A stretch of 64,000 nt of DNA, from positions 19,483-83,482 of the forward strand of contig CALXMM010000002.1 in NCBI GenBank assembly GCA_944389475.1, written 5' to 3'. The DNA comes from an uncultured Clostridia bacterium. GTDB taxonomy: Bacteria > Bacillota > Clostridia > TANB77 > CAG-508. The notes under the pieces are model-generated. The model did not search any database. It worked only from the letters and a program-made list of their open reading frames with translations, and was not told the DNA's origin. Shown here piece by piece: positions 21,573 through 23,378 of the stretch. The position numbers were made by a program, and so were the translations under genes. Position 1 is the stretch's first letter, and the number at the start of each line of letters is the position of its first letter.

Positions 21573-23378
21573 TTATCTATCTATACCGAATAAATTTCTA
21601 TCATTTATTCCTGCTTCATGATTTATATTTCTTAAGCTTCCATCATTGATTTTTTCAATAACATATTGTAAAGCTTCTGTTTTACTTTTTTGGCTTAGCT
21701 GTTTTGCTTTTATTCCAATACCTTGACTTTGAATATCACATAAAACGGTGTAATGTTTTAATAAACTTGTTACATTTCTTACTTCTTCAACACTTCTTAC
21801 TTGATTTTTATCTGATACATCAATTGCTGTATTAGAAATCCATTCTTGAGAAAATACAAAAGTTGGTCTATGAGTATACGAATCTATAGCTAAATTGCAT
21901 ACTGGTACAAAATTTTCTGGATTAATATGATAAATATAATTAGGATATTTCAATATAGCTTCTTTTTTTCCATCTGAATTTTGTATGATTTCGATATTAT
22001 CACTACCATAAATGTAAGTAGAATTATTCAATTTAATCATTCCAGAACTATTACGTGCTAGATATGGATTATAGCCATCAATAGGGTTAGAAGAAGCAAA
22101 CACTCCATCAACTCGTTTAGTTTCATAATGATTAGCTCTATCTAAAGACTTTTTTAACATTCCACCTTCTAATTTCTCTGGAGAAACAGTAGTTATATGA
22201 GTAATATCAATATTATTATCAATAAATATTTGCTTTATTGATTCACCATATTCTTGCATTAATTTGAATATTTTTATTGCTTCATTAGTAAGTTTAATAT
22301 CATTATTGGTACTTCCGTGATTTATATATCTTTGATGTAAAAAATCTAAAGCATTATCAATAGTTTCTTTATTAAAATTTTCAAGTTTTTTTGAATAATG
22401 TTCTGTTAATAATTTTATTTTATCTTGATATGTGTATTCTTTAGACTTTTCTTGCCAGTTCTTTATAAGAATATCAATTTCTGGATGATCAACAATCATT
22501 CTTTGATATTCATTGCTTTGTCGTAACTCTGTTGTTATTTGTTCAGGAGTTTTATTTTGATATTTTAGAAATAAATTATTTAAATAAACATTTATTTTTT
22601 CTTCTAATGTAGGTAATTTAATTCTTGATTCGATACTTCCATCTTTTTTATATAAAAGTTTATAAGTTTTTGCCTTAGCTTCTAATTCTCCAATCCTATC
22701 TATTTTTCTTTTGGATTCATCATCTAAGACTGCCTTAATAATTGAAACATCCAAATTATCTTTTTCACGAGAGCCTTTACTTTTAGTTAGGTAGATATAT
22801 TCTTTTGATTCAGTTTTCAGTTTCAAGCCTTTATAATCAACCGTTTTGCTATCATACATTAAATTAAATAATTCTTTAGGAATTACTTTTTCTATTCCTA
22901 CAAATTTTCCTTCCTTTTCTTCAAAAGCATAAGAATGAGTTATTACATCATTGCCTATTGTTTGATAAGTAAATATGCCAACTCCTAACATATTTTTCTT
23001 TCTGGTATTAGCATTTAACTCATGATCTCTTGTTTGAAAATGTCCATCTAAATTTATTATGTTTCTTGTTTTTATATTACGCCTATCATCTATAGAATAA
23101 CCTAATTTTTGTAATGTTTTAATTAATATAGAAAGGTCTTCTTCGTTACACATAATATCTATATCACTATTTTGCCTATACAAATCTTGTTTAGTTTGAA
23201 TTGCTGCTGAGATGCCACCTATAATAAATACATCTATTGTATCTAATTGGCCAAATACTTTTGATAATGTATCATAAGTTTTGCGATATTCGTTATAATT
23301 TTGTTTTGTAACATCAGTAATCATTGGAATATTACTTTTTCTAAATAGTTTATTTAAAAATTTTCTTATTATTGACAT
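21573..23378 (-). CDS. Large hypothetical protein with an N-terminal Lnu/ANT-like nucleotidyltransferase (pol-beta fold) domain
   Basis: VFIIGGISAAIQTKQDLYRQNSDIDIM has GG and DIDI 16 residues apart, as in lincosamide nucleotidyltransferases. The remaining 440 aa match no family I recognise. Confidence 0.5.
   Translation of the reverse strand: MSIIRKFLNKLFRKSNIPMITDVTKQNYNEYRKTYDTLSKVFGQLDTIDVFIIGGISAAIQTKQDLYRQNSDIDIMCNEEDLSILIKTLQKLGYSIDDRRNIKTRNIINLDGHFQTRDHELNANTRKKNMLGVGIFTYQTIGNDVITHSYAFEEKEGKFVGIEKVIPKELFNLMYDSKTVDYKGLKLKTESKEYIYLTKSKGSREKDNLDVSIIKAVLDDESKRKIDRIGELEAKAKTYKLLYKKDGSIESRIKLPTLEEKINVYLNNLFLKYQNKTPEQITTELRQSNEYQRMIVDHPEIDILIKNWQEKSKEYTYQDKIKLLTEHYSKKLENFNKETIDNALDFLHQRYINHGSTNNDIKLTNEAIKIFKLMQEYGESIKQIFIDNNIDITHITTVSPEKLEGGMLKKSLDRANHYETKRVDGVFASSNPIDGYNPYLARNSSGMIKLNNSTYIYGSDNIEIIQNSDGKKEAILKYPNYIYHINPENFVPVCNLAIDSYTHRPTFVFSQEWISNTAIDVSDKNQVRSVEEVRNVTSLLKHYTVLCDIQSQGIGIKAKQLSQKSKTEALQYVIEKINDGSLRNINHEAGINDRNLFGIDR

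Follow-up and report, generated by a model that had tools for sequence, protein, structure and literature searches.

The gene at positions 21573..23378 (minus strand) of the window, which here means the entire 64,000-nucleotide stretch of DNA that was analysed, encodes a 601-amino acid protein in which two autonomous modules are fused, an N-terminal nucleotidyltransferase (NTase) head and a C-terminal domain of an unannotated family, designated module B. The gene (NTase-B) was acquired horizontally as a self-contained accessory cassette and lies within what was a 66-bp spacer of an ancestral three-gene tRNA-Gly(UCC) array. In one clade, its homologs are carried by a mobilisable transposon of the Tn4451 type, which has a large serine recombinase, Mob, and TnpV. 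Our tentative reading, to which we give a probability of roughly 0.4, is that the protein combines an enzymatic head and a sensor or targeting tail in a single gene, most probably in conflict between genomes. Members of the family are abundant in the gut metagenomes of humans and animals, where they comprise hundreds of alleles, and are annotated by no public source. It pairs an apparently active NTase of an antibiotic-inactivating fold with a confidently modelled domain lacking relatives in Pfam and PDB, and it moves on mobilisable transposons.

One-gene insertion in a tRNA-Gly(UCC) array and mobility of the family

Three tRNA-Gly(UCC) genes flank NTase-B on the minus strand. Two identical copies (23582-23655 and 23689-23762; ARAGORN and alignment; Rfam 68.9 bits each) form the upstream boundary of the insertion, and a paralog predicted by ARAGORN at 21492..21565, 8 bp past the stop codon, forms the downstream boundary. 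The earlier note had described this paralog as a divergent "tRNA-like" gene, but it is a genuine, ancestral, and conserved tRNA-Gly (Rfam 63.2 bits against a gathering score of 29) that is unrelated to NTase-B. It has a U-C mismatch in the anticodon stem and G37, and its sister-species orthologs carry compensatory acceptor-stem changes. The spacer between the boundaries (21566..23581, minus strand) is 2,016 bp long compared to 64-66 bp in ten sister-species loci, a net gain of about 1.95 kb, and therefore represents the insertion of one gene. Gene order is otherwise shared with the sister species (PBP-AcylT-tRNA-Gln-YgjP-(NERD)-tRNA-Gly x3-deaminase), and in a synteny map NTase-B was absent from 80 of 80 related metagenome loci. 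The suggestion that an accessory gene had been acquired at this tRNA locus is thus borne out. By direct reading, the non-coding 5' part of the insertion (23379..23581, minus strand, 203 bp) contains the terminator hairpin of the two upstream tRNA-Gly genes (approximately 23513-23544), followed by a promoter-like region and a ribosome binding site (AAGGA). No target-site duplication or recombinase remnant was found at the insertion. The empty and filled sites provide a clean natural experiment on the acquisition of one gene at a tRNA array.

NTase-B had been placed in a tRNA-bounded islet together with a NERD nuclease-like gene and a DUF45 metallohydrolase gene. Both neighbours are present, a NERD and Zn-ribbon gene at 20659-21432 and a DUF45/YgjP gene at 19962-20639, but the insertion comprises NTase-B alone and not the whole block: DUF45 belongs to the syntenic backbone, and NERD is older than the insertion. 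NERD is variable and dispensable, being missing from strain L040, where NTase-B stays, and it was therefore rejected as a partner gene. At the adjacent hotspot, the alternative cargo consists of ordinary genes (UDG-like, ABC transporter, hydrolase), and within a species the NTase-B locus is stable, with a core-like appearance.

Homologs of NTase-B are limited to AT-rich gut Clostridia from human or animal gut habitats. There are 231 full-length homologs of approximately 603 amino acids with 58-70% identity, all unannotated. Among 185,579 species genomes, the gene occurs in 18, all of them Clostridia MAGs except for one contig binned as Rickettsiales. Approximately 20 independent homolog contexts have almost no neighbours in common, and the homologs form monocistronic units with a promoter box and a terminator of their own; a conserved 'TATGATAAAATTTT' box lies upstream. 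A phage or plasmid origin was considered and rejected (no match in 50,697 phage records, 72,556 plasmids, PHROGs, or IMG/VR).

Some homologs lie directly downstream of tRNA-Leu, tRNA-Thr, tRNA-Arg, or tmRNA genes, and in the window no terminator separates the NTase-B stop codon from the tRNA-Gly 8 bp downstream. These observations would fit a housekeeping tRNA enzyme, such as one of the tRNA-modifying or CCA type, that is functionally connected with the neighbouring tRNA-Gly genes. This explanation is close to refuted: in sister species the tRNA array is present but the gene is not, the tRNAs upstream of homologs belong to five kinds, no tRNA immediately follows the gene at any homolog locus, the gene is found in so few species genomes, and Pfam and NCBIfam tRNA-NTase models are unmatched. 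A functional tie between NTase-B and the downstream tRNA was rejected on the first and third of these grounds.

Mobility is evident in the clade of loci L001, L002, and L016, in which the gene is Tn4451-family cargo. It lies in the accessory-gene position, between Mob_Pre plus a large serine recombinase and TnpV, and in L001 it forms a BroN-gene-TnpV cassette within the SerRecomb/Mob element. The transposon is seen in states from intact to fully decayed, with stages of decay in L016, L020, L021, and L033-38. Around the window copy, no Tn4451-type transposon remnants were found.

The nucleotidyltransferase head

The open reading frame is a complete coding sequence of 601 codons plus stop, as first described, and the two-module product is predicted to be cytoplasmic; it has no transmembrane segment (Kyte-Doolittle maximum 1.39 over 19 amino acids). 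Residues 25-215 (22734..23306, minus strand) form a pol-beta-fold NTase domain of the LnuA/ANT(2'')-Ia type, as indicated by Foldseek against PDB and by weak Pfam matches. The GG-x16-DIDI motif reported earlier is present in the sequence (G54 G55 ... D72 I73 D74 I75), and in full the catalytic motif reads GGIS-x14-DIDI (G54, G55, S57, D72, D74; residues 54-74; 23157..23219, minus strand). E120 (23019-23021, minus strand) is the third acidic residue. The head thus has the hG[GS]-x9-16-Dh[DE]h pattern, third carboxylate, and mixed alpha/beta core that define pol-beta NTases. Conservation among 44 homologs is nearly complete at G54 (44/44), G55 (43/44), S57 (42/44), D72 (43/44), D74 (44/44), and E/D120 (43/44). 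Judging from this conservation and the predicted structure, the head is apparently an active NTase with an intact metal-binding/catalytic triad.

Sequence models alone place the head below threshold. PF14907 (NTP_transf_5) scored 18.2 bits on the 601-amino acid protein against a gathering threshold of 31.2, and PF10706 (ANT(2'')/Aminoglyc_resit) scored 18.4 bits against 21. Weak matches recur across the family, in 43 of 44 members for PF14907 (best E 6.2e-6) and in 42 of 44 for PF10706 (best E 5.3e-5). A few homologs have a precomputed PF14907 match, and one distant relative reaches 31.3 bits; the PF10706 likeness is at the superfamily level only. Identification of the head as an NTase comes from its predicted structure, because a confident model matches both LnuA and ANT(2'')-Ia. 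The AlphaFold model has a pLDDT of 86.5 and pTM of 0.73. Its top Foldseek match in PDB is LnuA (4fo1; E 1.2e-5; TM 0.67 on target), with ANT(2'')-Ia (4xje; E 6.8e-5; TM 0.62 on target) also matched, both at probability 1.0. MenT1 (8an5; E 5e-3) and, at still weaker scores, MenT3 and TglT (8xhr and 6j7o) also match. The earlier assignment to an Lnu/ANT-type pol-beta NTase with conserved Asp residues agrees with these matches.

In the model secondary structure, the NTase domain continues into a C-terminal extension consisting of a beta-hairpin (residues 237-255) and helices (residues 216-317; 22428..22733, minus strand). NTase and extension together make up module A (residues ~25-317), which is basic (pI 9.0). 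Module A also exists by itself, as proteins that span profile positions 34-320 (for example P0126, P0130, and P0135) and as module-A-only genes in loci L022, L023, and L025.

Given these fold relatives, the head could be a small-molecule O-nucleotidylyltransferase that inactivates a lincosamide, aminoglycoside, or similar hydroxyl-bearing compound, carried as resistance cargo on transposons, with module B as an accessory binding or oligomerisation domain. The matches to LnuA and ANT(2'')-Ia cover most of each enzyme, and the family profile aligns to LnuA across the GG..R..DIDI..IGY catalytic core, at an E of 0.12 that is not significant alone. Distant head relatives have weak Lnu NCBIfam matches, the gene occupies the Tn4451-type cargo position classically held by catP, and the habitat is human or animal gut. 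Nevertheless, we consider this role unlikely. Lnu models give the distant head relatives 16-23 bits against a cut-off of 300+, PF10706 stays below its threshold, and the window protein has no Lnu or ANT NCBIfam match (Lnu models, E<=1). The Lnu and ANT(2'') enzymes known so far lack a tail and have approximately 160-180 amino acids, the family is missing from the 72,556 plasmids, and drug modification leaves unexplained why module B occurs alone and on protease-like heads. If NTase-B is drug-modifying, it would be an unrecognised resistance determinant circulating among gut commensals.

Module B, an autonomous domain with several heads

Module B spans residues 318-601 (21576..22427, minus strand) and consists of a three-helix stalk (318-387) and a beta-rich domain (390-590). 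A model of these 284 residues alone (AF2) has a pLDDT of 94.8 and pTM of 0.90. The domain has no match in Pfam, NCBIfam, PADLOC, or PHROGs, or among PDB sequences. Foldseek with the domain model, a check proposed in the earlier note, gave no fold match in PDB (best E 0.05, probability 0.09), and a module-B profile search of a named database recovered only the same family and truncated forms. The 440 C-terminal residues had been described as fitting no family. This holds in all of these sources, but the residues are not a single body: they comprise the hairpin/helical extension of the NTase and the autonomous module B.

Near-invariant positions in module B are F427, A428, R442, Y483, F490, P492, F509, E512, W513, and N586; aromatic residues predominate among the conserved positions, and Arg, Glu, and Asn each occur once. 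An ADP-ribosyltransferase identity, prompted by an R...FASS...EEW pattern and three weak BFVD names (probability <=0.12), was rejected. Foldseek with the pLDDT 94.8 model finds no ADP-ribosyltransferase in PDB, H394 of a possible R-S-E/H-Y-E triad is not conserved, and the conserved residues are out of canonical order.

Module B is found alone, as a B-B tandem (P0129), and behind heads other than the NTase. Transglutaminase-like Cys-protease heads occur in P0189, P0207, and P0261; the triad motif VCSxLxR...GH...(N/D)PxxDL is apparent by direct reading, and near-full-length PF01841 matches are weak and sub-threshold (E 0.04-0.09). An HExxH head (motif HEISH) precedes module B in P0136, and a BspA LRR precedes it in P0133. 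Stand-alone module-B genes are solitary between housekeeping genes. An obligate two-gene system of A and B was rejected, since solitary B genes exist and A-only loci contain no B. From this architecture and the conservation pattern, we infer that module B may be a sensor or targeting domain.

Pol-beta-fold NTases such as GlnE, DrrA, and MntA can AMPylate proteins. NTase-B could belong to a protein-modifying family in which module B docks on a specific cellular or foreign protein that the head (AMPylase/NMPylase, protease, or HExxH peptidase) modifies or cleaves, with a role in regulation or in interbacterial or host interaction and not necessarily in phage defence. The transglutaminase-like and HEISH heads are protein-directed, module B is also joined to the BspA LRR, and the aromatic-rich conserved positions resemble a binding surface. 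Against this, the transglutaminase matches are sub-threshold, a secretion signal is absent, and the nearest folds of the head act on small molecules. We regard protein modification as a less likely role but, like drug modification, a live rival. Whether NTase-B proves to modify drugs or to act in defence, module B offers a clearly delimited subject for structural and functional study.

A possible role in genome conflict and comparison with known systems

A defence or conflict role for NTase-B is put forward here as a hypothesis drawn from circumstantial evidence. PADLOC-DB v2.0.0 matched none of its families to the 601-amino acid protein. In the transposon clade, the recurrent neighbouring Bro-N gene has a full-length match (E 1e-115) to PDC-S13, which is itself only a candidate defence system in PADLOC; a literature search on PDC-S13, NTP_transf_5, and PF14907 found nothing useful. 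NERD is adjacent in the window, and a decayed NERD is present in L005. A defence-island context was rejected because pooled neighbours are mainly housekeeping genes and lack a consistent defence signature, and most PADLOC matches among them appear to be housekeeping cross-matches (DprA, PolA). The earlier note had held that defence would be unlikely if orthologs with a housekeeping annotation were conserved in the same tRNA-flanked position and the catalytic Asp residues were not conserved. The orthologs instead share no conserved tRNA-flanked position, not one is annotated as housekeeping, and the Asp residues are retained, so that this test does not refute a defence role.

AbiEii or CD-NTase-like logic had also been proposed, and it did not hold. 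DUF1814 has no match to the window protein at E<=1 and is absent among the 25 most-matched families in 44 members at E<=10, and the AbiEii/MenT family-specific motifs III and IV were not identified in the protein. No cognate antitoxin (AbiEi/MenA) lies beside the gene, and no neighbour is conserved across the approximately 20 contexts. CBASS is likewise not indicated: no CD-NTase profile in PADLOC matches, there is no conserved effector partner, and the 50 top-ranked PDB fold matches listed include neither CD-NTases nor cGAS.

By a logic like that of the fused toxin-antitoxin CapRel, the NTase head might add nucleotides to tRNA 3' ends and block translation, with module B acting as a cis inhibitor and trigger sensor from which the head would be freed by phage infection. 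MenT toxins extend the tRNA acceptor stem (PMC7450476; PMC10435456), and the fold matches include MenT1, MenT3, and TglT. The basic pI of module A, the single gene with no separate antitoxin, and the mobile-element lifestyle would also fit. We regard such a toxin as very unlikely, since the DUF1814 match and motifs III/IV are lacking, MenT folds match clearly less well than Lnu/ANT, and the adjacency to tRNA is coincidental. In addition, module-A genes stand alone without module B or a conserved partner, where an unrestrained toxin would be lethal.

In our preferred reading, the NTase head would move a nucleoside monophosphate from an NTP to a hydroxyl of a target, which could be a small molecule, an RNA 3' end, or a protein. 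Module B, on its helical stalk, would serve in binding, either choosing the target or gating the enzyme. The protein would act alone as a one-gene unit of enzymatic head and sensor or targeting tail, protecting the host or mobile element against phages or competing elements; housekeeping metabolism is probably not its role. Observations in favour of conflict are the PDC-S13 neighbour, the NERD adjacency, and MenT toxins as the next-best fold relatives. Observations against it are the lack of a PADLOC match; the absence from phage, plasmid, IMG/VR, and PHROGs collections; the mostly housekeeping neighbours, core-like locus, and ordinary hotspot cargo; and the fact that the head is structurally closest to drug-modifying enzymes and not to toxins. 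It is possible, but doubtful, that module B is a new fold serving as the common sensor/targeting tail of interchangeable heads (Lnu-like NTase, transglutaminase-like protease, HExxH peptidase) in a new class of single-protein anti-phage/anti-MGE systems spread by transposons in uncultured gut Clostridia, with the window gene as its NTase member. If NTase-B is a defence or toxin module, bacterial immunity would gain both a novel domain and a novel effector/sensor architecture.

Among known systems, LnuA (4fo1/4wh5) and ANT(2'')-Ia (4xje/4wqk) share their compact pol-beta NTase fold with the head. They have the same core, in which a helix and an "IGY" strand come after GG-x15/16-(R..)DIDI, and their genes are likewise carried on mobile elements of gut/Firmicute bacteria. 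However, these enzymes have approximately 160-180 residues, whereas NTase-B has 601 and adds the hairpin/helical extension and module B. Its likeness to the Lnu family, whose cut-off (300+ bits, ~160-170 amino acids) it does not reach, is by predicted fold.

MenT/AbiEii (DUF1814) proteins resemble NTase-B in their pol-beta core and motifs I and II, with weaker fold matches, and the genes of both groups are accessory or mobile, with links to conflict. MenT acts on tRNA 3' ends, and DUF1814 is defined by its motifs (PMC7450476). NTase-B differs in having no DUF1814 match, no motifs III/IV, no antitoxin gene, and a different C-terminal architecture.

CapRel is a fused toxin-antitoxin that unites effector and sensor in a single-protein defence. 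Like NTase-B, it consists of one polypeptide in which a nucleotide-transferring enzyme at the N terminus is followed by a C-terminal domain that looks non-catalytic, and it is encoded as a single-gene cassette on mobile DNA. The two are not homologous in either domain, and module B also occurs free-standing and on other enzymes.

Tn4451-family elements have a single accessory gene, classically the resistance gene catP (PMC3158075). Tn4451/Tn4453 (TnpX, TnpV, Mob, and one accessory gene) and the elements of the L001 clade share the same accessory-gene position, which holds catP in Tn4451/Tn4453 and the NTase-B gene together with the Bro-N/PDC-S13 gene in the L001 clade.

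Nucleotidyltransferase head

The studied gene (21573-23378, minus strand) encodes a 601-aa protein whose head is apparently an active nucleotidyltransferase (NTase) of the Lnu/ANT(2'') fold, as judged from structural modeling and residue conservation. The GG-x16-DIDI motif reported in the earlier note is present in the ORF as IIGGISAAIQTKQDLYRQNSDIDI. Matches to PF14907 (18.2 bits, cut-off 31.2) and to the ANT(2'') family PF10706 (18.4 bits, cut-off 21) were sub-threshold and systematic (43/44 and 42/44 family members, respectively), and no match was obtained in PADLOC or NCBIfam. 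The AlphaFold2 model, built from an alignment of 44 sequences, is confident (pLDDT 86.5, pTM 0.73). Its top Foldseek match in PDB is LnuA (4fo1; E 1.2e-5, target-normalised TM 0.67), followed by several entries of ANT(2'')-Ia (E 7e-5 to 5e-4, TM ~0.62), and LicD-type NTases were matched in BFVD. The family profile aligned with LnuA exactly over GG..R..DIDI and the next helix/"IGY" strand, with an E-value of only 0.12. Catalytic positions are essentially invariant: among 44 family sequences, G54 is conserved in 44, G55 in 43, S57 in 42, D72 in 43, and D74 in 44, and position 120 is acidic in 43. The Lnu/ANT-like head proposed earlier is therefore upheld by these structural matches and near-invariant residues.

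Judged by the criteria that define the Lnu, ANT(2''), DUF1814, and CD-NTase families, the head belongs to none of them; it represents a new and divergent clade within a known kind of enzyme. Modification of a drug or small molecule, with LnuA and ANT(2'')-Ia as the closest structures, is unlikely. MenT1, FKRP, MenT3, and TglT rank after these two enzymes, and a MenT-like fused toxin appears quite improbable.

Two-module architecture and the tail domain

By sequence comparison, the protein is a two-module fusion. The 440-aa body described in the earlier note as fitting no family is modular rather than one unit, and its tail indeed has no family match. When 1.84 billion representatives were searched exhaustively with a profile, 273 relatives were recovered. 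Module A (profile positions ~34-320; NTase, beta-hairpin, and helices) also forms stand-alone proteins of 280-360 aa, with A-only genes in metagenome-assembled genome (MAG) loci L022, L023, and L025. Module B (positions ~320-600; a three-helix stalk, then a beta-rich domain) is an autonomous, unannotated tail domain common to other enzymatic heads. It occurs alone (280-330 aa), in tandem duplication (P0129, 624 aa), and C-terminal to a transglutaminase-like Cys-His-Asp domain (P0189, P0207, and P0261; 736-810 aa), a HEISH-containing domain (P0136, 626 aa), or BspA LRR (P0133). The motif VCSxLxR...GH...(N/D)PxxDL was read directly in the transglutaminase-like heads, and two of the three gave weak but near-full-length PF01841 matches. 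Stand-alone B genes are single and flanked by housekeeping genes, with no module A found nearby.

The module B model is excellent (domain only; pLDDT 94.8, pTM 0.90), and Foldseek found no credible match for it in PDB (best E 0.05, probability 0.09, TM <=0.12). Its profile matched nothing among PDB sequences, and searches of Pfam, PHROGs, and PADLOC also returned nothing. The tail domain and the overall architecture are new. Across 35 diverse sequences, F427, A428, R442, Y483, F490, P492, F509, E512, W513, and N586 are invariant or nearly so; H394 is not universal. A sequence pattern and weak BFVD name matches had hinted at an ADP-ribosyltransferase, but no support for this identity was obtained. 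The head would NMP-ylate a hydroxyl group on its target, and module B may select or gate that target. Protein NMPylation with this family-less tail as docking domain seems doubtful.

The tandem form and the fusions of module B with otherwise unannotated domains, P0138 (649 aa) being counted among the multi-domain proteins, make up a "dark" family with one common tail. Forms without the NTase core that keep the hairpin, helices, and module B are recurrent, some on long contigs (P0313, P0317, P0327, P0331-P0333, and P0335; 388-393 aa). These could be frameshift-derived internal-start gene calls or a true head-less variant.

Insertion at the tRNA-Gly array

The ORF, tRNA-Gly, and NERD/DUF45 layout of the earlier note was confirmed. 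ARAGORN placed two identical tRNA-Gly(UCC) genes at 23582-23655 and 23689-23762 and a third array member at 21492-21565, 8 bp beyond the stop codon of the studied gene (all minus strand). Beyond it lie a NERD and topoisomerase-type Zn-ribbon protein (20659-21432, minus), a YgjP/DUF45 metallopeptidase-like protein (19962-20639, plus), and tRNA-Gln(CUG) (19680-19753, plus; ARAGORN). Two ORFs of 66-67 aa overlapping this last tRNA (19633-19833, plus; 19659-19862, minus) are almost certainly spurious. Two tandem paralogous papain-like (Peptidase_C1) proteins at 24490-26439 and 26429-28906 (plus) both combine a hydrophobic segment at the N-terminus with an anchor at the C-terminus, and the second has a long NTNTGNE-type repeat. 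These genes vary by strain in L039-L042, with one (775-811 aa) or two (633 and 804-827 aa).

The order in sister species is PBP-AcylT-tRNA-Gln-YgjP-(NERD)-tRNA-Gly-tRNA-Gly-tRNA-Gly-deaminase, with identities to the window of ~84% (PBP), ~83% (deaminase), ~78% (YgjP), and ~74% (NERD). In ten sister loci the first two tRNA-Gly genes are separated by 64-66 bp, compared with 2,016 bp in the window; together with this synteny, the difference indicates a one-gene insertion of ~1.95 kb. The tRNA-bounded block is therefore not an islet as a whole: DUF45/YgjP is syntenic backbone, and NERD is an older, variable neighbor. No recombinase remnant or target duplication was found at the insertion. Same-species strains (L030, L039-43) keep the locus, and L040 retains the studied gene with NERD absent. 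The protein is encoded in 0 of 80 related loci, and a tRNA-related housekeeping role, to which the adjacent tRNA genes might point, is nearly refuted.

The NERD gene is present in the window and some sister loci, gives way to a UDG-like gene in L052 (6692-7455), L053, and L056, and is decayed to fragments beside the homolog in L005 (10111-10514). Between YgjP and the array, some sister species (L061, 3805-7423; also L067) carry ~3.7 kb of other cargo (UDG-like protein, ABC ATPase and permease, and alpha/beta-hydrolase-like protein); this ordinary cargo marks the segment flanking the array as a general gene-flux hotspot.

The supposed divergent tRNA-like gene at 21492-21565 is a conserved tRNA-Gly(UCC) paralog of ancestral origin (Rfam, 63.2 bits) with sister orthologs (L048, 7455-7528; L067, 7442-7515). 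Its U-C anticodon-stem mismatch and G37 (A37 in the other copies) are common to sister species, and its orthologs show compensatory acceptor-stem pair changes from species to species. Two distinct UCC isodecoders lie side by side, the second kept as third array member across sister species. Because no terminator separates this tRNA from the stop codon in the window, and the insertion displaced the TATAAT box that precedes it in sister species, the tRNA may now be co-transcribed with the gene. Two 2.1-kb contigs from independent short-read assemblies (L031 and L032; window 23608-21512) both break within its T-arm, pointing to an alternative junction or a second variant of the tRNA in the samples concerned.

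Distribution, possible role, and mobility

The studied gene is an acquired, mobile, single-gene cassette. The full-length family comprises 231 clusters (90% identity), whose members are all ~603 aa long and share 58-70% identity with the window protein, and its only name in any source is "hypothetical protein." Among 185,579 species genomes, 18 carry the gene; these are uncultured gut Clostridia MAGs, except for one contig binned as Rickettsiales. No family member occurs in phage records, plasmids, PHROGs, or IMG/VR. Gene neighborhoods differ in nearly every lineage, and pooled neighbors are for the most part housekeeping genes. In several cases a homolog follows a tRNA-Leu, tRNA-Thr, tRNA-Arg, or tmRNA gene, with 80-320 bp in between. 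Homologs have their own conserved promoter-like box and a terminator immediately after the stop codon, and are therefore self-contained cassettes.

The sole recurrent cassette is Bro-N - gene - TnpV, with Bro-N directly upstream of the homolog (L001, 7010-7921, plus; L016, 4985-5899; L020, 4988-5899). The cassette can be followed through a series of decay stages: it is partly degraded in L016, L020, and L021, and in L033-38 only Bro-N/recombinase stubs and TnpV are left, at a fixed position in the chromosome. The Bro-N protein matches the PADLOC phage-defense candidate PDC-S13 over its full length (E 1e-115); no literature was found on this candidate.

A role in inter-genomic conflict is our preferred, tentative reading (probability roughly 0.4), because it is most compatible with the mobility, patchiness, head-swapping architecture, and PDC-S13/NERD neighbors. 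Neither a PADLOC model match nor defense-island enrichment gives direct support for defense. The earlier interpretation is partly supported: it survives in its NTase head, family-less tail, and accessory gene, and is abandoned for the islet, the tRNA-like gene, and DUF1814/CD-NTase membership.

In L001 the cassette adjoins genes for Mob_Pre and a large serine recombinase, an arrangement that is typical of the Tn4451 family of mobilisable transposons; elements of this family classically have a single accessory gene (PMC3158075).
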